Shown here in pieces: positions 1,009-9,809 of a stretch of 22,590 nt of DNA. The stretch covers positions 1 to 22,590 of IMG/VR virus record IMGVR_UViG_2585427750_000023; one strand, written 5' to 3'. The position numbers and the translations under genes were made by a program. The stretch comes from a virus. Its lineage: Duplodnaviria; Heunggongvirae; Uroviricota; Caudoviricetes. The notes beneath the pieces are model-generated. The model worked only from the letters and a program-made list of their open reading frames with translations. It was not told where the DNA came from and made no database searches. How positions within the stretch are numbered: position 1 is the stretch's first letter; every line of letters starts with the position of its first letter.

Positions 1009-1083
1009 GTCCTCTTAGTTAAATGGATATAACGAGCCCCTCCTAAGGGCTAATTGCAGGTTCGATTCCTGCAGGGGACACCA
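1009..1083 (+). tRNA. argW: tRNA-Arg (anticodon CCU), integration target of the prophage
   Basis: 75-nt cloverleaf read by hand: acceptor stem GTCCTCT/AGGGGAC (one G-U), anticodon stem AGCCC/GGGCT with loop CTCCTAA (anticodon CCT), T-arm GCAGG-TTCGATT-CCTGC, discriminator A plus encoded CCA; candidate -10 TATACT at 992..997. Confidence 0.93.
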
Positions 1084-1244
1084 TTTATCAGTTCGCTCCC
1101 ATCCGTACCAGTCCGCAAAATCCCCTGAATATCAAGCCTTCCGTAGATTCACAGTTCGTAATGGTTCGCGTCAGATCGTTGACAGCCGCACTCCATGACG
1201 GGTAAAAAGTGGATAAAATAATTTTACCCACCGGATTTTTACCC

Positions 1245-2402
1245 ATGCTCACCGTTAAGCAGATTGAAGCAGCAAAGCCGAAAGAAAAACCATACCGCCT
1301 ACTCGATGGTAATGGCCTGTACCTTTATGTCCCTGTGTCAGGGAAAAAGGTATGGCAGCTTCGCTACAAGATTGACGGTAAGGAGAAAATCCTGACCGTA
1401 GGAAAATATCCGCTAATGACTTTGCAGGAGGCAAGGGATAAAGCATGGACTGCGAGGAAAGACATCTCGGTTGGCATCGATCCGGTAAAAGCGAAAAAGG
1501 CTTCGTCTAACAACAATTCCTTTAGTGCGATTTACAAGGAATGGTACGAGCACAAGAAGCAAGTCTGGTCAGTAGGCTATGCAACTGAACTTGCAAAAAT
1601 GTTTGATGACGACATTTTACCTATCATCGGCGGCCTTGAAATTCAGGATATTGAGCCGATGCAACTGCTGGAAGTAATCCGCAGATTTGAAGATCGCGGC
1701 GCAATGGAGCGAGCCAACAAAGCACGCAGAAGATGCGGCGAGGTTTTCCGTTACGCTATTGTCACTGGTAGGGCTAAATATAACCCGGCACCTGACCTTG
1801 CAGACGCCATGAAAGGATACCGCAAGAAGAACTTCCCGTTTCTTCCTGCAGACCAGATCCCGGCATTCAACAAAGCACTGGCAACATTTTCAGGAAGCAT
1901 CGTATCGCTCATTGCGACCAAAGTTTTACGCTACACAGCCCTAAGAACGAAAGAGCTTCGTTCCATGCAATGGAAGAACGTCGATTTTGAAAACAGGATT
2001 ATCACTATCGACGCCAGTGTGATGAAGGGACGCAAAATTCATGTGGTTCCTATGTCAGACCAGGTGGTTGAACTTCTCACTACGCTAAGCTCAATCACCA
2101 AACCAGTATCAGAGTTTGTTTTTGCCGGACGCAACGATAAGAAGAAGCCAATCTGCGAGAACGCGGTGCTACTTGTGATTAAACAAATCGGCTATGAGGG
2201 TCTGGAAAGCGGTCACGGATTCAGGCATGAATTCAGCACGATTATGAACGAGCACGAATGGCCTGCTGACGCTATTGAAGTGCAACTTGCACATGCCAAC
2301 GGCGGATCTGTGCGCGGGATTTACAACCATGCTCAGTATCTAGATAAGCGCAGAGAAATGATGCAGTGGTGGGCGGAATGGCTTGATGGGAAGGTGGAGT
2401 GA
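1245..2402 (+). CDS. intS: Prophage tyrosine integrase (P4/CPS-53 IntS-like, N-terminal DUF4102-type arm-binding domain)
   Basis: 385-aa ORF from ATG 1245 (MLTVKQIEAAKPKEKPYRLLDG...), recognised as IntS-type integrase; directly downstream of argW in the same orientation. The ORF-track start at 1209 is a GTG extension and is not preferred. Confidence 0.88.
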   Translation: MLTVKQIEAAKPKEKPYRLLDGNGLYLYVPVSGKKVWQLRYKIDGKEKILTVGKYPLMTLQEARDKAWTARKDISVGIDPVKAKKASSNNNSFSAIYKEWYEHKKQVWSVGYATELAKMFDDDILPIIGGLEIQDIEPMQLLEVIRRFEDRGAMERANKARRRCGEVFRYAIVTGRAKYNPAPDLADAMKGYRKKNFPFLPADQIPAFNKALATFSGSIVSLIATKVLRYTALRTKELRSMQWKNVDFENRIITIDASVMKGRKIHVVPMSDQVVELLTTLSSITKPVSEFVFAGRNDKKKPICENAVLLVIKQIGYEGLESGHGFRHEFSTIMNEHEWPADAIEVQLAHANGGSVRGIYNHAQYLDKRREMMQWWAEWLDGKVE

Positions 2403-2581
2403 TCCACCTTAACTACTATCTAAGAGCACAAAGCCTTGCAATCCAGTGCAAAGCTTTGTGTGTCTCAGTTTTGTCTGCCATCACATGGAGATAATTAACC
2501 TATAACGCACATAGATGGTTGATGTTAATAAAAGCGCTGATCATCTCCTTAAGAGTATTTTAAGAGCATTTGAGTTATTAG

Positions 2582-2609
2582 CATGGAGGCGTATTGCCTC
2601 CATGTTTTT
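2582..2609 (+). terminator. Intrinsic terminator in the int-tailspike spacer (stem CATGGAGGC / GCCTCCATG, loop GTATT, then TTTTT on + strand)
   Basis: Perfect 9-bp inverted repeat 2582..2590 / 2596..2604 followed by T5 at 2605..2609; A-run on the other side, so it may act weakly in the tailspike direction too. Confidence 0.6.
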
Positions 2610-2610
2610 A

Positions 2611-4848
2611 CTACCATGTCGCATCTATGTAGAACGTTGGAGATGTAGTGGTGGACCCTTCAATCGATATTTGTCCTGTTGAAGCATTAATGGTGGCCAT
2701 TGCCATGCCAAATGAAACGCCATCAGCAGTGAACGGTACAGGGACATTTTTGGTTACTTTTGGTCTGCACCACCTCGGAAGCGTTAGAACAGTATTGCCA
2801 TTCGCAAATGAAGTGGCTGCCAGTTCAATATTAATTGAATTGGCAGTTAAACTTGACGGTGCCTGTACTGTTACGTTTGTTCCAGCCCACCATTGAACAG
2901 CTGCTCTTGGCGTGTAATCAACACGCGACCACCAGTCGATAATGGCAGAGCAGATAATTTCCGCATACAGACGATACCCTAACTGGCTTTGGTGAATGTC
3001 ATCACGCAGAAGTGGGTCGTATTGCGTGTTGAAATACTCTGGATATGGGGCCGGGAGCTGGTGAGTTGTTGTTACACAAATGACGTTATTGCCATATTTC
3101 ATCATCTGGCGTTTACCAGCTTCTCGCAACTCTGCGACACCGTCGTAGTTAGAAGATGGCTGGCCAGCCCCTCCAATAAATGACTGGCTATACCACATCC
3201 ACGGCTCAACCCAAACAGGGATACGACCAAGGCCATTGCAATATAAGACAAACTCATCTATCAATGACGCCATATAATCGCCGTTTTGGTTTGCCTGCCC
3301 TTCGTTAGTTCCGGCAACCATAATAACGATGTAAGCATCACCCGGCCCCTGAGCCTTCAGGAGATCTAACTGTTGCCTCATTGTCTGTCCGGCAACTGCC
3401 TTGTTTACAATGCTATGTGAACGGTGGCCGTTCGCTCCATCCATTAATTGCGGAATGTACGAGCTGAACGCGGAAATGAAATCCTCAGCTGTACTATCAC
3501 CGTGGATAAGGATATTAAGTGGAGGCTTACCGTGCACGCCATTATCAGAGGTGTAGCTGCATAATCCAGTTACACGCGCAGCACCTCCAGATGCCGTGGT
3601 CAGTGCAACAAACCCAACTTCGTATACATCCCCTACATCAGCAGTATCAAAGGGCAAACGTATCCCAACGCCATTCATCGTTATCTGCGCCCAGTTTTTA
3701 CCTTGCAGTGATACGCCAACGGTTGCTTTGCCCGGGGCGTACGACAGTAAACCTCCTGGCAGCGGGAATGGAGTTCCTTCTGCTACTGGACCACCAATTG
3801 GTTTCTGTCTATAAGACCACTGTGTAGCACCTGGTGCCCCATAGAACATCATCCAACCACCAGAGCATCGCAGAACAATCCCAACTTCTGAGGCGGCCTG
3901 AGATTCCATACGAATATGTGCAGAAATATGCTCTCCAATATCTATTGGTGCGAACAGGCCTGTTGTACGGTCAGTAGTTAAGGGGAAGATAGCTGCGCTA
4001 TCTGAGGATATGGTGACTTCACCTTCATAGAAGAACGTGTCACCATTTATGGAATAAACTTTACAATCTGACCATTCCACTCGCTTCATGCGAATAGGGT
4101 TTCGGTTGAGGATGGCCTGCTTAGCCAGATAATCCACTTCTCCACCGGTTGCTTTAAAGTTCAGGTGCGTAAATTCAAACGTACCCTCCCCCTCGTACTG
4201 CAACGATTTAAACAGTGAGTACAGATCACTGTCGAATCTCAGGGTGACATTTTTATCAATGATTACTTTACTGTTCGCAAGGAAAGAAGCGTTAGCAGCT
4301 GTAGACGGTACGGTGTACACCATCTGATTTTTTGAATGATTAGAGAAGTAAACATACCCGTAGGTCGCAACACTATCGCGCCACGCCTGGACTACGTTAG
4401 AATTATCATAACTTGGAATTTTTGTGATCGACTGCAAAACAAGATCTTCCTGTGAGATAGCTCCGTTTACCAGATTAACACCTCCTTGAGATGCAAGATC
4501 TTGCCTGAGTTGGTCAGGGTCATACTTCAGCACATTCGAAAAATAGAACTGCTGCGCACCATACGCATCATAAACAGCCATAGAATGGCCTTGCACGGTT
4601 ACGAATTTGGCAATCTGTCCGTTATATACCGGATATCCAGCAGCGTTAATGATGATTGGTTGCGAAACAGGAACGTGAGAACCATCTTCGTTCTCTACAT
4701 AAACCTGAATCTGGTTTTCAGTATTTACCGGGTCAGTGTCAATTTTACCGATATAAATTTTGCCATTGGCTACGGCTTTAAAAGAACGCGCCATAGTGAA
4801 GAGTTGCGAAGGCATCGATACGATCACATTGGCTGTAATGTCTGTCAT
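2611..4848 (-). CDS. Tailspike protein: P22-family head-binding N-terminal domain fused to a divergent receptor-binding region containing an SGNH/GDSL-hydrolase (esterase) motif set
   Basis: 745 aa; N-terminus [11 protein letters not shown]...[20 protein letters not shown]...[13 protein letters not shown] matches the conserved P22 gp9 head-binding domain; further downstream [11 protein letters not shown] (aa 447-455), GTNE (513-516) and DDIH (616-619) match SGNH blocks I, III and V; RBS GGAG 8 nt upstream of ATG. Confidence 0.85.
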
Positions 4849-4948: not shown

Positions 4949-5827
4949 TCAGTAGTTATGTACTGAAGGAGGTAATTCTTTATTCTTAAGTCTCATCCAT
5001 GCGGAAAGATTCGTTGGTCCGTCTGGCTCATTAATATCAACATCTCGTGTGTGGTTTATTAAAACGTCTCTCGCCATTCCGATAACATACGAGAATTCAT
5101 GACCGTAGTCGTAGCATCTTCCGGAATAGTTCGATTGAATTTGTTTTAATGCCGGATACAGTTCGCGGAATAATGCCTGTGAACGGTTAGCATAATCCCA
5201 TAGCCATACAAGGCTGTTTGCTTCTTTTGCAGAAAGCTCGTTTGCTTTCTTCTCTTGTTTGCCGATAAACTCGCCTTCAAGCACTACCCTGTGGATGTAC
5301 TCTACGGCCAGCGGGATTTGTTCAATTGAAAGTTCATCAATGCTGTCAATACCAAAACGCTGATGAACCATATTGTATGCATCGTCATAGCGAAGTCCTT
5401 TCTTTCCTACCAGCATGTTTACTGCATCGCGTAGCGGCGTTCTTTCCTCAACAGTGGTTTTCTTGCCTTTCACATACTCGCCATGTTTGCGAATTGAAGG
5501 TAGAACTTCTGCTGTTACCCACTTGCGGAATTTGTGCGGGACCGAACCTTTATTGACAGCATCGCGGCAGCGCAGAACCAATGTATACATACCTGATTCG
5601 CTCACAATGCTTAGATTCTGCTCACCACCAAGGGTGTAACTTAAAGTTACTCCCTTTTCATCGTCATCAAGTGCAGTAAGCGCCTTGCGTGAGTTAGTCA
5701 GGGTTAAAGCATCACAAACATCTTTTGCTACAAACCACGGCTCACCGCATTTGTTGATGACGAGGATTTCACTGTCGCCGAATTTGAAGATGGTGAAATC
5801 GTTTTGTGCCTTTGCTATACTTTTCAT
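4949..5827 (-). CDS. ant: Antirepressor Ant (Bro-N domain N-terminus, P22 Ant-like)
   Basis: Bro-N signature [28 protein letters not shown] at the N-terminus; preferred start ATG at 5827 with AGGA 9 nt upstream; the ORF-track extension to 5893 begins with TTG and is less likely. Confidence 0.8.
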
Positions 5828-5895
5828 GTCAATATTTCCTAATCCGATTTGTTGATACCGAAGCCCTGACTGTTCCCGCAGTTGGGGCTTCAACT
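5828..5895 (+). ncRNA. Candidate sar-like antisense RNA covering the ant ribosome-binding site (hypothesis)
   Basis: Extended -10 TGcTATACT on + strand at 5813..5821 predicts a start near 5828 directly opposite the ant start; an 11-bp hairpin at 5862..5889 is fully paired only on the + strand transcript (two G-U pairs that become mismatches on the mRNA strand); predicted length about 68 nt. Confidence 0.3.
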
Positions 5896-6093
5896 TTCTG
5901 CTCTATCAGTTATATCTTTCCCTTCATATACTTCACCTATATTGCTAATGCTGGCAGAACATCCAAGATGCTTGTATCTTATGATGTCCAACACGCAGTC
6001 ACTACACAGCATCCGACCTGTTTCTTTAGAGTAAATGTATGTTTGATCAGCGTCTGATTCGCTAATGCCGCAGAAACAACATTCTTTACTCAT
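5890..6093 (-). CDS. Hypothetical small zinc-ribbon-like protein (two CxxC pairs) encoded between arc and ant
   Basis: 67-aa [12 protein letters not shown]...RMLCSDCV with Cys pairs about 21 residues apart; SD GAGGGG 8 nt upstream; start ATG overlaps arc stop in an ATGA. Confidence 0.6.
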
Positions 6094-6230
6094 ACCGTTA
6101 TCCCCTCTCTCTTCAGGCTGTCCATCACCCGTTTAATTACTTCTGCACTAAATGAGCGACACTCCTCCTTTGCTTTTTCTTCAAGAATTTTTTCTAGCTT
6201 CTCTGGCATACGCAGTGTTTTAACCTTCAT
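6090..6230 (-). CDS. arc: Arc-like ribbon-helix-helix transcriptional repressor (below the ORF-track size cutoff)
   Basis: Hand-translated 46-aa [49 protein letters not shown], resembling P22 Arc (..FNLRWPREV..NGRSVNSEIYQRVMESFKKEG..); SD GGAGG 5 nt upstream of ATG at 6230. Confidence 0.75.
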   Translation of the reverse strand: MKVKTLRMPEKLEKILEEKAKEECRSFSAEVIKRVMDSLKREGITV

Positions 6231-6242
6231 TGTATCCTCCGT

Positions 6243-6317
6243 TGTATGTGGTACGCATACATAGTATTTAGGTACGCATTGATAGTCAATAGATACCTAC
6301 ATATCCTGTGGTAAAAA
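6243..6317. promoter_or_regulatory. Divergent immI control region: Pant-like promoter (minus strand -35 TTGACT 6284..6289, 17-bp spacer, -10 TACTAT 6261..6266), Pmnt-like extended -10 (TGgTAAAAA 6309..6317, + strand), and two operator-like dyads
   Basis: Dyad 1 TGTATG-N7-CATACA at 6243..6261 over the predicted Pant start; dyad 2 AGGTA-cgc-ATTGA-tag-TCAAT-aga-TACCT at 6270..6298 over the Pant -35; 9-bp direct repeat GGTACGCAT at 6250 and 6271. Confidence 0.55.
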
Positions 6318-6335
6318 ATTATTCAGGATGCGCCG

Positions 6336-6584
6336 ATGTCTGATCGTAAGTACAAAAACCCTCAAGTGAATCTGAGGCTTCCTGTAGAGATAAAGGAACG
6401 TCTTATTGAACTGGCTGAGGCTAATTCTCGTTCATTAAATGCTGAGATGGTCGCGGCACTTGAAGCGTGGACCGAAAAAAATAAACACATTCAAGCACTA
6501 GACCTTGCAACTATAGCATCACGATTGATAGATCTTGAACACGATGTTGAGACGCTAAAGACCATGTATGGTAAGGATAAATAA
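6336..6584 (+). CDS. mnt: Mnt-like ribbon-helix-helix repressor
   Basis: 82 aa; N-terminal RHH motif NLRLPVEIKERLIELAEANSRSLNAEMV similar to P22 Mnt/Arc; C-terminal helical tail; AGGA RBS; divergent from arc. Confidence 0.85.
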   Translation: MSDRKYKNPQVNLRLPVEIKERLIELAEANSRSLNAEMVAALEAWTEKNKHIQALDLATIASRLIDLEHDVETLKTMYGKDK

Positions 6585-6586
6585 AT

Positions 6587-6865
6587 ATGACAGATACCAA
6601 AGTGAACTTCAGAGAAACCATCTTCAAGGACTCAAGTGATGCTGTAAATGAGTATGCTGATGGATTTGCTTACTCGTCTTTTGGGGATGTCGGAGCAAGA
6701 TTTGGTTCAATAGCATTTTTTAAGCATGTTTCAGACTGGGTTAATAATGAGGAGATTCAGCCAGTTAGATACCAAATTGCCAACATTCGCATGAGTGAAA
6801 ATCAACTTCTTGAACTGGCTAAGTATATAGTTTCTCAACACGAAGAATCAAAAAAATTAAGCTGA
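6587..6865 (+). CDS. Hypothetical protein, first gene downstream of mnt (start 2 nt after mnt stop)
   Basis: 92-aa ORF with AAGGA upstream inside the mnt 3' end; no recognisable motif. Confidence 0.55.
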   Translation: MTDTKVNFRETIFKDSSDAVNEYADGFAYSSFGDVGARFGSIAFFKHVSDWVNNEEIQPVRYQIANIRMSENQLLELAKYIVSQHEESKKLS

Positions 6866-6872
6866 CAGAGCC

Positions 6873-7433
6873 ATGATTTCTTTCCCTGCCGTAAATGCTG
6901 ATCATGCAGCGGAGAAAAAGAGAACTCTTGGTCGTATGGGGTCGACAGGTGGCATAGGAGAAAAGTCCAATGCTTCGCCTCCAGTTACCAAGAATGATAT
7001 AACCAAAAACAATAATATCGCTTATCTTGGAAAACAATACACTGAGGAGCATGCTATGGGCAGCCCATCAAGAGAAGAGATTGACGCGAAGCTTGGTCAA
7101 AACAAAGCAGAAATTGAGTTAATATCTGCTAACATGCGCGCTGAAATTTCAGCTTTCAGAGAATTCCAATCTAAGCAATTTACAGCTATGAATCAGTCCC
7201 TTAATGAAATTAAGGGACAGATATTCGCTAGCAATGGCGAAGTTGCAGGGCTCAAAGGTCAAATTGATGGCATTAAAACATCCATGACCGCGACCCAATG
7301 GCTCGTTGGTGCGGTTCTCGCTATGCTTGCGGTAATCATAACGCTTCCGCAGATTCAATCTTACTTCAAGGTTTCTGAGCCGACTGCGAAGGAAGCCGCT
7401 AGTGAAACCCATGATACCAAAATAAAGCAGTGA
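6873..7433 (+). CDS. Hypothetical coiled-coil protein with a single C-terminal transmembrane anchor; alternative start at 7056 (125 aa) with SD GAGGAG
   Basis: Heptad-like region EIDAKLGQNKAEIELISANMRAEISAFREFQ..., then hydrophobic helix WLVGAVLAMLAVIITLPQI; the 6873 start has a weak RBS, the internal ATG at 7056 has GAGGAG 6 nt upstream. Confidence 0.5.
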   Translation: MISFPAVNADHAAEKKRTLGRMGSTGGIGEKSNASPPVTKNDITKNNNIAYLGKQYTEEHAMGSPSREEIDAKLGQNKAEIELISANMRAEISAFREFQSKQFTAMNQSLNEIKGQIFASNGEVAGLKGQIDGIKTSMTATQWLVGAVLAMLAVIITLPQIQSYFKVSEPTAKEAASETHDTKIKQ

Positions 7434-7461
7434 TCTTACCAATAAAACCTGGGAGGACAAC

Positions 7462-7689
7462 ATGAAGCAATGGCTCATCATAATTGCTGTTTTTTTGCTC
7501 ATTTACACTGTTTTCCCAACATTAAAAGCACCAATGCAAATAATTTCACTAGCAATAATTGCGATTGGTGCTTTCATTGCTGTAGCCGTACTTGTGTTTA
7601 AGGTTTTAAAGTTTTTAGTTTGGCTATCAAAAGATGATGGATGCAAAGTTCATCAAGAAAAAGAAGGCAAAATAACCAAAGTTGACTAA
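7462..7689 (+). CDS. Hypothetical small membrane protein (two predicted TM helices)
   Basis: 75-aa ORF with strong RBS GGGAGG 6 nt upstream; two hydrophobic segments (about aa 5-22 and 26-52); stop overlaps the convergent gp16 stop. Confidence 0.6.
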   Translation: MKQWLIIIAVFLLIYTVFPTLKAPMQIISLAIIAIGAFIAVAVLVFKVLKFLVWLSKDDGCKVHQEKEGKITKVD

Positions 7690-9809
7690 CTGTCACTAGC
7701 GAGCCATGTAATAATCCCCGTGCGGGCAATGGTTTTTGCTTCATCTGTTGATAAGGTTTTCTCCCATCTCTTAAATGCCCCAGATTGCATCAGTTTCCTT
7801 TCTATTACGCGTCTCACTTCTGCTCTGTCTACTGGTGCGTTTTGCAGGCGAAATAGCATTGATTTAAACTCAGGAGAAGACAGTAGAGCATCAGCAGCCT
7901 TTATCCTGCTTGTTTTCCCTGACATCAATGCGGACGTTATCACCCCTGTTGCGCCTACACCAGGAAGACCAGATAAGCTTGTAATACCTTCCGCCGCAGC
8001 AGCTTTTGAGGCTATTCCATAAATTTTTGCGAGACTACCCTTTTCTTTCAGAAAGTTATTAACTTGCTGATCCACAAGACTACTAGCATACTGCTTACCA
8101 GTATTGAGTCTATTCATAGCCTTAGCTGCTTGATAAATCGTATCAAGGCGCTTTGATGCATCTGTGCCAATAGCATCACGGAGAGCCTTCATATTGGCCC
8201 CATTGCGTGACATTCCGTTATACCATTTTACAAATCCATCAACTCCTAATTGCTGACCAGGTGATTTGGCATAGCTGGTAAATGCTTTATTCATTGAGGT
8301 GAGCGCAACTTCCTGCCGCATATCCTTTGGAATCGACTTCATTAATTGCCTAAAGTCGCCACCGTTTCCTTTTGCCATATTAACAACAGCACTTTCAACT
8401 TTTGGAATTGCTGATTGCTGAAGTTTTCTACCCAAGACGGTTACAGCATCATCTTCAATGGATTTTCGTTTTTTTACCAACTCCTTACCAAGCGTCCATA
8501 ATTCCCCTGCGCCATATTTTTCTGCGACAGCCTGTTGGTCATCTGTTATGGCTGCATATAACTTTTTAAGAACACCTGTTTCTTCATCCTTGAATGGACC
8601 AGAGCCTTTGCCAATAGCTTGTCCAACCTGCTTTCTAGCGAGATCTAAACGCCCATACGTTGGCAAGGTGTTTGGATCAAGTCGGTTCAATGTCCGCTTC
8701 ATTATTGGAGATAATTCATCAATTCCACCTATGTCATCAGCAAAATCCTCTAAAAAATTCAATGTATTAGTTGCCTCAATCCGGTCTCTTACAGGAACCT
8801 TTTCGGCAATTTTGTTGTAGATGTTATCTGACTGATTTTGTAATGATGAAATGGTTTTATCAAAATTATCTGCAAGCCTGTCAGAAACCAGTTGCTTATC
8901 AAGGCTTCCCCCAAATGAAGTTATCATTTCATCAGCTTTTCTTCCTAATTCAGTAATAAAACGCTTATGCGCCTCACTAATCTCCGTTCCAGGAAGACTT
9001 GCCACTGCATTATCAAGAGCCCTGACAGCAGGATTATTAGAGATCATGCCTGGAGTGGCATAATTTTCCAGTTCTAGCTCACGAATAGCATTTATCGCGT
9101 TAAAATCAGGATTAACTTCATCGGCGAAATCTTGAATAGCACGTTGCCCACCAATAAATTTATTATCCATTGCGCCAGCAGCTTTCTTTAACGTTGCTTT
9201 AGATGATTTACTACCCATCCCTACGGATGAACGATAAATATCCCCGGCACTATTTTTAATTTTTCCTGCAATCTTCCCAAGCGCTGGACCAACAATCTCG
9301 GCTACAGGGCCAGCCACAGCACCAATAGCAGCTCCGGAAGCAACATCGCTATTTGTTCCATTGGCTACAATAGCCCCTTCTCCAGCACCAAGCCCTGCGG
9401 CGGCAGCCAGCCTTGCCGCCCCTTTCGGAACCTGAGAAATAATCCCACCACCACTAACAAATGGCGCTGCTTGTCCAACAAACTCACCAACATCTTGTGC
9501 GGTTGATGGTTTTGCCGCTAACTTCTGCTGTAGAGACTGAATTGCGGCTTGCTCTTCTGGTGTCATATCCTGAAACAGGCCAACACCTTTACCAACATCC
9601 ATCAATCCACTGAGAACGCCATACATAAAACGGTCGAAACCGTTAGCATTATTAACAACATTTTCCTGTCTGGAATTTTCCTCTGGTGAAACCAAAGGAG
9701 ATTGCTGCTGTTCTGGTTGGGAATCAAGCACAAAGCCATCAGGAAGTTGTGAGTTATCAGGCTGTTCATCCAGAACAAACCCCTCTGGTAAACCTACATT
9801 GGTTGCCAT
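7686..9809 (-). CDS. Ejection (injection) protein, P22 gp16-like
   Basis: 707-aa ORF at the gp16 position in P22 synteny (last gene of the 7/20/16 trio); Gly/Ala-rich segments; start overlaps gp20 stop. Confidence 0.75.
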   Translation of the reverse strand: MATNVGLPEGFVLDEQPDNSQLPDGFVLDSQPEQQQSPLVSPEENSRQENVVNNANGFDRFMYGVLSGLMDVGKGVGLFQDMTPEEQAAIQSLQQKLAAKPSTAQDVGEFVGQAAPFVSGGGIISQVPKGAARLAAAAGLGAGEGAIVANGTNSDVASGAAIGAVAGPVAEIVGPALGKIAGKIKNSAGDIYRSSVGMGSKSSKATLKKAAGAMDNKFIGGQRAIQDFADEVNPDFNAINAIRELELENYATPGMISNNPAVRALDNAVASLPGTEISEAHKRFITELGRKADEMITSFGGSLDKQLVSDRLADNFDKTISSLQNQSDNIYNKIAEKVPVRDRIEATNTLNFLEDFADDIGGIDELSPIMKRTLNRLDPNTLPTYGRLDLARKQVGQAIGKGSGPFKDEETGVLKKLYAAITDDQQAVAEKYGAGELWTLGKELVKKRKSIEDDAVTVLGRKLQQSAIPKVESAVVNMAKGNGGDFRQLMKSIPKDMRQEVALTSMNKAFTSYAKSPGQQLGVDGFVKWYNGMSRNGANMKALRDAIGTDASKRLDTIYQAAKAMNRLNTGKQYASSLVDQQVNNFLKEKGSLAKIYGIASKAAAAEGITSLSGLPGVGATGVITSALMSGKTSRIKAADALLSSPEFKSMLFRLQNAPVDRAEVRRVIERKLMQSGAFKRWEKTLSTDEAKTIARTGIITWLASDS

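Follow-up and report, generated by a model that had tools for sequence, protein, structure and literature searches.

A mobile gene pair and a separate small membrane protein gene between mnt and gene 16 of a P22-like Escherichia coli prophage, with a possible anti-phage role

The 22,590-nucleotide (nt) stretch analyzed here (the window; positions 1 to 22,590 of IMG/VR record IMGVR_UViG_2585427750_000023) covers one end of a P22-like Escherichia coli prophage that is inserted at argW, and our subject is the three open reading frames (ORFs) that lie in it between the maintenance repressor gene mnt and the ejection protein gene at the gp16 position. We observe that this slot holds two independent elements, namely, a mobile cassette of two genes (ORF1, coding for a small soluble protein, and ORF2, coding for a coiled-coil protein with a membrane anchor) and a separate gene for a small membrane protein, ORF3. 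Judged by their position and by comparison with the occupants of equivalent slots, these are accessory genes that would be expressed in the lysogen, and an anti-phage role appears to be their most likely function (probability of roughly 0.5).

Two elements in one slot

The three ORFs are more than chance ORFs, since their ratios of nonsynonymous to synonymous substitution rates (dN/dS) and their full-length matches to PHROG families mark them as real genes. ORF1 is under strong purifying selection (dN/dS, 0.03 to 0.10) and matches phrog_4231 (E = 3e-47, profile positions 1 to 87 of 88). ORF2 shows moderate purifying selection, with a dN/dS of about 0.24 in its core and of about 0.18 in the N-terminal 61 codons when compared with a Serratia allele, and matches phrog_5820 (E = 1e-96, profile positions 2 to 187 of 200). 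ORF3, which matches phrog_7294 (E = 1e-50, profile positions 1 to 75 of 75), makes the weakest case for a gene of the three, yet it is intact in hundreds of contigs. All three PHROG families carry the annotation "unknown function," and on sequence evidence they are the only firm memberships: no hit of the three proteins in Pfam, NCBIfam, or PADLOC passed the threshold, and PDB sequence-profile searches with both cassette families returned only chance coiled-coil matches. An earlier note on this DNA, made from the sequence alone, had placed the three ORFs at the coordinates listed in Table 1 and had held that none of them looks like a virion protein or a known regulator; the coordinates proved correct, and the Pfam, NCBIfam, PADLOC, PHROG, and PDB-profile searches bear out the second point and identified no characterized relative.

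The same note had treated the three ORFs as one cluster, and this does not hold: the cassette and ORF3 each occur without the other, so that they do not form a three-gene unit. Homologues of ORF1 and ORF2 occur together where ORF3 is missing, namely, in a P22-like prophage of Serratia whose gp16 is of the P22 type, in Morganella and Arsenophonus, in a siphovirus-type prophage of Klebsiella michiganensis, and in a lambdoid prophage of Yersinia. Conversely, ORF3 is present without ORF1 and ORF2 at loci L002, L017, and L052, and it sits next to the same gp16 allele despite different slot contents in CP062910, LR883012, and phage E212. When these contexts are compared, their DNA becomes homologous only at the ribosome-binding site of ORF3, some 20 bp before its start codon. 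Across 5,426 complete E. coli genomes, ORF3 was found in 34; with a minimum coverage of 80% of the respective length, the ORF1-ORF2 DNA was found in 9 and this gp16 allele in 43; and any part of the 6200-7800 query, that is, the mnt/arc end or the ORF3/gp16 end, in 205. A tblastn search with ORF3 of 50,697 phage records, HK97 (NC_002167) included, matched only two P22-like phages.

The idea that the three genes nevertheless act as one three-component membrane module draws on their adjacency on one strand, with tight spacing and no terminator-like site between them, on the recurrence of the order mnt-ORF1-ORF2-ORF3 with a second, diverged ORF1-ORF2 allele in the same E. coli slot (69% and 60% identity), and on the small one-helix membrane gene that also follows the pair in Morganella and Serratia. 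We regard it as very improbable given the separate occurrences and unequal genome counts above, and given that the small gene beside gp16 follows the gp16 type and not the cassette. In every P22-like variant that we examined, the gene abutting gene 16 codes for a small membrane or envelope protein whose type changes with the type of gp16; besides ORF3 with its two helices, these proteins comprise 76- and 98-amino-acid (aa) proteins with one helix and a coiled coil, a 42-aa one-helix protein, hkcB, a signal-peptide protein, and SieA.

The comparison of this slot across P22-like prophages, which the earlier note had suggested, shows that the mnt-gp16 interval as a whole is a hotspot of diversity: between identical flanks, no fewer than six different sets of genes occur. 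The slot behind the repressor gene cI is likewise a known mosaic hotspot, holding the abortive-infection systems rexAB and bstA (PMC8585504). A further trace of exchange is seen in the diverged cassette allele of locus L006, which becomes near-identical to that of the window at about positions 7255 to 7275 (about residue 133 of ORF2) and stays so through ORF3 and gp16, which places a recombination junction inside the ORF2 coding sequence. With respect to the definition of a moron (Juhala et al. 2000, quoted in PMC3594210), the slot contains extra DNA between otherwise adjacent genes, with a G+C content of 37% in ORF1, 44% in ORF2, and 33% in ORF3 compared to 48% in the window, and consensus scans found no promoter and terminator of their own flanking either the cassette or ORF3. 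In line with this, the genes appear to use the mnt promoter.

All three ORFs lie on the mnt strand, and divergent, overlapping sigma-70 matches resembling Pant and Pmnt are located between arc and mnt, where the transcript of mnt, ORF1, ORF2, and ORF3 is presumed to start. Each match agrees with the consensus at 9 of 12 positions, and its support comes from the analogous annotated promoters of P22 immI, the number of matches itself being no higher than expected in shuffled sequence. From the Pmnt-like site to the ORF3 stop, the consensus scan of the window found no terminator-like and no further promoter-like site, so Pmnt would drive all three genes in the lysogen. Expression of mnt has been reported in a P22-like E. 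coli lysogen (PMC9928086). There is also no terminator-like site in the stretch where ORF3 and the gp16-position gene overlap (7686-7689), and Pmnt transcripts would run antisense into the 3' end of gp16. In a Morganella morganii prophage (L009), an extra 92-aa gene (5702-5980) without a PHROG or Pfam match is inserted between mnt and the ORF1 homologue; the mnt operon can therefore carry further cargo.

The order in P22 is mnt, orf59a, a terminator, PsieA, sieA, and the convergent gene 16. All three ORFs lie between genes 16 and 9 of the P22-like prophage, and the claim that they occupy the position of sieA is right insofar as the slot is the mnt-gene 16 region of P22. Only ORF3 matches the position of sieA itself, and does so exactly, while ORF1 and ORF2 stand where orf59a stands, inside the mnt operon.

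A wider family behind two kinds of repressor

ORF1 codes for an acidic protein (isoelectric point, 5.0) with no hydrophobic segment. Its AlphaFold model (predicted local distance difference test [pLDDT] score, 73) is a three-strand beta meander followed by a C-terminal helix, for which a fold search returned no significant structural neighbor. A profile search of 1.84 billion representatives places the ORF1 family in 8 clusters, every one of them made up of stand-alone small proteins, with no fusions that hint at function. Wherever an ORF1 homologue occurs (E. coli, Serratia, Morganella, Klebsiella, Yersinia, and Arsenophonus), the gene immediately 3' of it is ORF2-like; the Klebsiella protein has nothing but its architecture and N-terminal motif in common with ORF2.

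For ORF2, the AlphaFold model (mean pLDDT, 63) has a disordered stretch at residues 20 to 61, a helix from 67 to 157 that runs into the membrane segment, and a disordered tail, which together with the hydropathy profile agrees with the single C-terminal membrane anchor described by the earlier note. The tail extends 23 residues beyond the membrane helix and is presumed to be periplasmic, because the lack of an N-terminal signal sequence predicts a cytoplasmic N terminus and an outside C terminus. In the family alignment, conservation extends from an SREE(I/L)D motif via the coiled coil to the membrane helix, and the 40 to 90 residues ahead of this core are variable and predicted to be disordered.

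A second probable feature of the family is an internal translation start. The note had pointed to an alternative ORF2 start at 7056 (Met62), and this codon is indeed preceded by a strong Shine-Dalgarno sequence (GAGGAG, 6 nt upstream), compared to only a weak ribosome-binding site at ATG 6873. Met62 is near-invariant in the family alignment: in a diverse set of 20 ORF2 homologues, 15 have a Met that stands 1 to 4 residues ahead of SREE(I/L)D, and for 10 of these 15, a Shine-Dalgarno-like tetramer is present at -16 to -5, where the background frequency over all codon positions is 7.4% (binomial P of about 1e-8, inflated by the relatedness of the loci). The N-terminal extension is coding as well, as its conserved motif and low dN/dS indicate. 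Conserved Met and ribosome-binding motif together make two ORF2 isoforms likely, with Met62 as the probable second start of a 125-aa form that consists of the coiled coil and anchor and lacks the putative partner-binding peptide. Similar paired starts are known from the regulation of holins and of P22 SieB/Esc.

The cassette has relatives well beyond P22-like prophages. ORF2 is homologous to gp48 of phage HK97 (BLASTP, E = 3e-21; both in phrog_5820). In HK97, gene 48 and its small neighbor, gene 49, come immediately after cI, in the slot that rexAB occupies in lambda. Such a pair is also found between cI and N in HK542/HK244 and in Klebsiella phage ST15-VIM1phi2.1, and directly downstream of a repressor in many IMG/VR prophage contigs. 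HK97 gp49-gp48 and the E. coli cassette have in common the SREE(I/L)D coiled-coil and membrane-helix core and a small, often overlapping upstream partner gene directly behind a same-strand repressor; they differ in the N-terminal 60 to 85 residues of gp48, which are unrelated to those of ORF2, and in the repressor, which is cI in HK97 and Mnt, of immI, in the window.

Looking across contexts, we observe a same-strand repressor-type gene directly upstream of the ORF1-ORF2 pair, or of an ORF2-like gene with another partner, in about 18 of about 20 distinct contexts, a count that is descriptive and not a statistic because the loci are related. Mnt/Arc is the upstream protein in six of them (the window, L006, L009, L016, L027, and L028), and cI, Peptidase_S24, or helix-turn-helix proteins take this place in HK97, HK542, the Klebsiella phage, Yersinia, L019, L034, L037-L041, and L046-L049. 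The identity of the repressor was confirmed with Pfam for nine contexts and was taken from Pfam tables or the record annotation for most others. The Yersinia prophage has no terminator between cI and the pair but a strong bidirectional one just after the pair. The two exceptions are K. michiganensis and L045, in which the pair lies on the opposite strand beside the tape measure gene, a tail moron slot of the type that holds exclusion gene 15 in HK97. The K. michiganensis slot (L012, 2967-5759) also contains a gene for a toxin of the YafO family as well as two more genes of unknown kind; it is a multigene accessory island, with the tail tube genes on one side and the tape measure gene on the other.

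Furthermore, at least four types of upstream partner are associated with the family, namely, the ORF1 type, the gp49/101-aa type, the 144-aa HK542 type, and a CxxC zinc-ribbon type. The N-terminal peptide of ORF2 varies with the partner type, and the coiled-coil and membrane core stays constant: ORF1-type partners are paired with an FPAVNAD, AAYAD, or AVYAD peptide, 101-aa-type partners with VDAxxMPAYHEK, and the HK542 type with VxGGSxFEA. The ORF1 and gp49/101-aa types are remote homologues according to hhalign (probability of 82%, E = 1e-5, 74 columns), and a direct pairwise comparison of ORF1 with HK97 gp49 detected no similarity.

Accessory genes that sit at mosaic hotspots within the repressor operons of prophages are a well-known kind of feature. 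The link of the E. coli cluster to the HK97 gp49-gp48 family, the recurrence of this family behind both Mnt and cI, and the combination of swappable partners with a conserved internal start appear to be undescribed in the searchable literature, in which we found no functional study of HK97 gp48/gp49, of phage DUF1640 proteins, or of accessory genes of P22-like immI regions. The suggestion that the cluster is undescribed is therefore correct as far as published characterization goes; the ORF2 homologue HK97 gp48, on the other hand, has long been sequenced.

Possible function and alternatives

The case for an anti-phage role is made by the characterized occupants of equivalent slots, which are mostly anti-phage (rexAB, bstA, sieA, and HK97 gp15). 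Lambda RexA/RexB offers a close parallel: it is a two-gene unit cotranscribed with a repressor, with one soluble and one inner-membrane component, and relatives of the cassette fill the rex slot between cI and N. The RexAB layout of two genes behind a repressor that end at a terminator is seen in Yersinia and also in HK97, HK542, and others, and in the window, mnt, ORF1, and ORF2 follow one another with no terminator-like site in between; position and consensus scans are the basis for this comparison and for cotranscription of the cassette. The proteins themselves differ: lambda has a RexB with four membrane helices and a RexA of about 280 aa, whereas the cassette has a coiled coil anchored at its tail by a single membrane pass and a partner of 92 aa. 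Searching ORF1 and ORF2 against PADLOC-DB (E ≤ 1) gave nothing, which is a weak test because the presence of Rex models in PADLOC is unconfirmed; ORF3 had only a chance-level match to a "2TM effector" (E = 0.48).

P22 SieA shares with the slot its location in the mnt-gene 16 interval, and, as a prophage-expressed inner-membrane protein, it abuts gene 16 as ORF3 does. SieA has 164 aa and several membrane helices, whereas ORF3 has 75 aa and two, and sieA has its own promoter after a terminator, whereas no conserved promoter precedes ORF3. Membership of ORF1, ORF2, or ORF3 in the SieA family was rejected: a regular-expression search found the SieA motif FxRYPxEAxxFNK (PMC10883804) in P22 SieA and in none of the three, and BLASTP of the three against P22 SieA (type A) gave no hit at E ≤ 10. 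They also show no similarity to orf59a, hkcB, or other slot proteins. HK97 gp15 is a superinfection exclusion moron (PMC3594210) and a small prophage-expressed inner-membrane protein, which ORF3 resembles in size and kind, and two cassette relatives occupy the same tail-gene slot; it is a single gene of the YebO family, with no detected similarity to ORF3. We also checked the Tab paper, which proved unrelated.

With regard to mechanism, ORF2 would sit in the inner membrane and oligomerize via its coiled coil, and ORF1 would bind its N-terminal peptide, as the change of this peptide with the partner type suggests. The pair would then protect the lysogen, more likely as an abortive system with a soluble partner and a membrane effector in the style of RexAB than as a pure block of entry, because the swapping of partners around a constant membrane core fits the former better; the short isoform from Met62 would modulate the full-length protein. 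ORF3 would be a separate candidate, a SieA-like entry blocker acting on gp16-type ejection proteins. P22 mutants that escape from SieA carry changes in gp16 and gp20 (PMC10883804).

Several points weigh against this anti-phage role. No PADLOC defense model matches any of the three ORFs, and we found no experiment on any member of the ORF2 or cassette families in the literature. The layout of coiled coil plus C-terminal anchor is generic and also occurs in proteins outside phage defense. Simple consensus scans yield no more promoters and terminators than in shuffled sequence, and the comparison of contexts revealed no conserved promoter of its own at ORF3, whose dN/dS of 0.46 to 0.74 is based on few substitutions and lies only moderately below 1. 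The loci that document the repressor linkage and the internal start are related to one another, and the counts overstate their independent support. Lastly, the cassette is rare (9 of 5,426 genomes) and therefore cannot matter to most P22-like prophages.

The alternative that fares best is that the cassette is expressed in the lysogen and serves host physiology or the lysis-lysogeny switch of its own phage instead of defense. A position behind repressor genes shows expression in the lysogen and not purpose, there is no match to a defense model, and one preprint, according to its title, proposes a helping role for RexA and RexB in the passage from the lysogenic to the lytic state. The sole family resemblance that we detect is to CCDC90-like scaffold-type coiled coils (PF07798, formerly DUF1640; MCUR1, CCDC90B, and yeast Fmp32), with which ORF2 shares the coiled-coil stalk and C-terminal membrane helix. 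ORF2 scores 21.5 bits against PF07798 (E = 2.4e-4), below the gathering cutoff of 33.5 bits, and 9 of 10 family members match weakly (best E = 8.6e-6); the match is limited to the low-complexity coiled-coil and membrane part, and the characterized members are mitochondrial scaffold proteins. The RefSeq label "CCDC90 family protein" on some ORF2 copies is not to be taken as a function. The cassette might, for instance, act in the membrane or under stress in the manner of the tail-anchored E. coli proteins ElaB and YqjD, or take part in the switch to lytic growth, as proposed for RexAB. We consider this alternative rather unlikely, since the cassette is also found in the tail-gene moron slot, unconnected to regulation of the switch, since the exchange of partners on a constant membrane core looks like the diversification of a sensor, and since the characterized genes in equivalent slots are mostly anti-phage.

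A contribution of the RNA itself, in which the Pmnt transcript through ORF3 would act as an antisense RNA on the 3' end of gp16, is improbable and would be at most an additional effect. It has in its favor the 4-nt convergent overlap of ORF3 and the gp16-position gene, with no terminator-like site found, and the precedent of BTP1, whose lysogen-expressed antisense RNA STnc6030 over the 3' end of an injection gene blocks BTP1 (PMC7067206); it leaves unexplained the purifying selection on the ORF1 and ORF2 proteins as well as the cassettes that lie behind cI and are followed by a strong terminator. A role in the lytic cycle, as a holin accessory, lysis regulator, or XhlA-like hemolysin, is the most improbable of all, for the XhlA-like layout of ORF2 (coiled coil and C-terminal anchor), the "XhlA family" gene that fills the same slot in another E. 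coli prophage (CP062910), and a dual start reminiscent of holin/antiholin pairs are set against an orientation with the repressor gene and against the late operon, the absence of the cassette from any lysis cassette among the loci examined, and the rejection of XhlA membership for ORF2 (no Pfam XhlA match; hhalign probability of 0.2% against the slot's XhlA family protein).

Returning to the anti-phage role, we add a broader proposal that is speculative and, taken as one joint reading, doubtful as a whole: ORF1-ORF2, gp49-gp48, and their relatives may form an unrecognized modular two-component family. Its constant part would be a tail-anchored coiled-coil membrane effector that is regulated by its own short isoform, and a swappable N-terminal peptide would couple this effector to interchangeable small sensor proteins, with at least four partner types in existence. 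Such a family would confer abortive infection or exclusion, acting from the repressor operons of lambdoid prophages (rex slot) and P22-like prophages (mnt slot), and, separately, SieA, hkcB, ORF3, and the other small envelope proteins next to gene 16 would be allele-matched blockers of the gp16 ejection conduit.

The surrounding prophage and wider significance

The setting of the slot is that of a P22-like immI region (Table 1), as ant, arc, the Rfam match to sar, and the divergent Pant- and Pmnt-like promoters bear out, and the integration at argW recognized by the earlier note is supported by the tRNA-Arg(CCT) gene with an integrase gene behind it. The mnt gene is named "Arc family DNA-binding protein" in RefSeq, and its DNA is 95% identical to mnt of CUS-3. 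The sar match spans the junction of ant and the 67-aa Cys-rich ORF, antisense to both, and its full length indicates that the antisense regulator of P22 immI is conserved in this E. coli prophage. The 67-aa ORF, which contains a zinc-ribbon-like CCFC...CSDC arrangement, is wedged between arc and ant with a 4-nt overlap at each end; it has no Pfam match and no counterpart in P22 immI, and may be an extra regulator of the antirepressor arm. The mechanically called ant ORF has 314 aa from a TTG codon, and its true start is probably an internal ATG because RefSeq annotates a product of 292 aa in matching genomes.

The integrase gene lies between argW and the tailspike gene (1009-4848), which places both genes at the same end of the prophage, an arrangement shared by L006, L008, and apparently CUS-3. 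It departs from the P22 prophage map. The 707-aa protein at the gp16 position has no Pfam match and is labeled "hypothetical" in RefSeq and "transglycosylase" in phage E212; a 603-aa protein at the same position in the Serratia prophage matches PF26808 (Phage_P22_gp16).

Table 1. Features of the window and, in the last six rows, genes abutting gene 16 at other loci
Feature	Position	Strand	Remarks
argW, tRNA-Arg(CCT)	1009-1083		followed by integrase gene
Integrase gene	1209-2402		
Tailspike gene	2611-4848	minus	
ant	4949-5893	minus	Pfam Bro-N and P22_AR_C
sar antisense RNA	5829-5895	plus	Rfam RF00262, 71.6 bits, E = 3e-14, full-length
67-aa Cys-rich ORF	5890-6093	minus	phrog_7150, E = 3e-50, end to end
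arc	6090-6230	minus	Pfam Arc
Divergent overlapping sigma-70 matches	6261..6307	both	between arc and mnt
Pant-like match	6289-6261	minus	
Pmnt-like match	6279-6307	plus	
mnt	6336..6584	plus	ribbon-helix-helix maintenance repressor, first operon gene; Pfam Arc, E = 3e-10
ORF1	6587..6865	plus	92 aa, soluble; starts 2 nt after mnt stop
ORF2	6873..7433	plus	186 aa; N-terminal peptide, disordered linker, long helix, C-terminal membrane helix
Internal Shine-Dalgarno sequence and in-frame ATG in ORF2	7043..7058	plus	GAGGAG 7043-7048, ATG 7056 (Met62)
Codons of the ORF2 transmembrane helix	7299..7361	plus	single helix, about residues 143-163; hydropathy peak of 2.18 over residues 137-165
ORF3, abutting gene 16	7462..7689	plus	75 aa, two hydrophobic (membrane) helices, as in the earlier note; lysine-rich C-terminal tail; ribosome-binding site GGGAGGA
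gp16-position gene (ejection protein)	7686..9809	minus	707 aa; convergent with ORF3, 4-nt overlap
gp20 and gp7 genes	beyond gp16-position gene	minus	Pfam Inj_translocase (gp20) and P22_gp7
Gene abutting gene 16, L009	6754-6984		
Gene abutting gene 16, L016	5861-5989		
Gene abutting gene 16, L018	5235-5558		
Gene abutting gene 16, L027	4461-4844		
Gene abutting gene 16, L028	5940-6236		
Gene abutting gene 16, L050	2337-2831		

Genes in repressor operons have repeatedly proved to be anti-phage, as rexAB, bstA, sieA, and HK97 gene 15 illustrate, and the present comparison connects a little-known E. coli cluster with a broader family to which a gene pair of the model phage HK97 also belongs. Three features recur in this family, namely, its association with two unrelated kinds of repressor, the swapping of partners on a constant core, and a conserved probable internal start. 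In addition, the envelope protein gene that varies with gp16 offers a clue to the way in which P22-like prophages fit their exclusion functions to particular ejection proteins. Should the family be defensive, it would add a new membrane-effector architecture to phage defense and would also give experiments an easy entry, since HK97 lysogens and deletion mutants are simple to make; if it is not, the cassette is still among the most consistently lysogen-linked in enterobacterial prophages.

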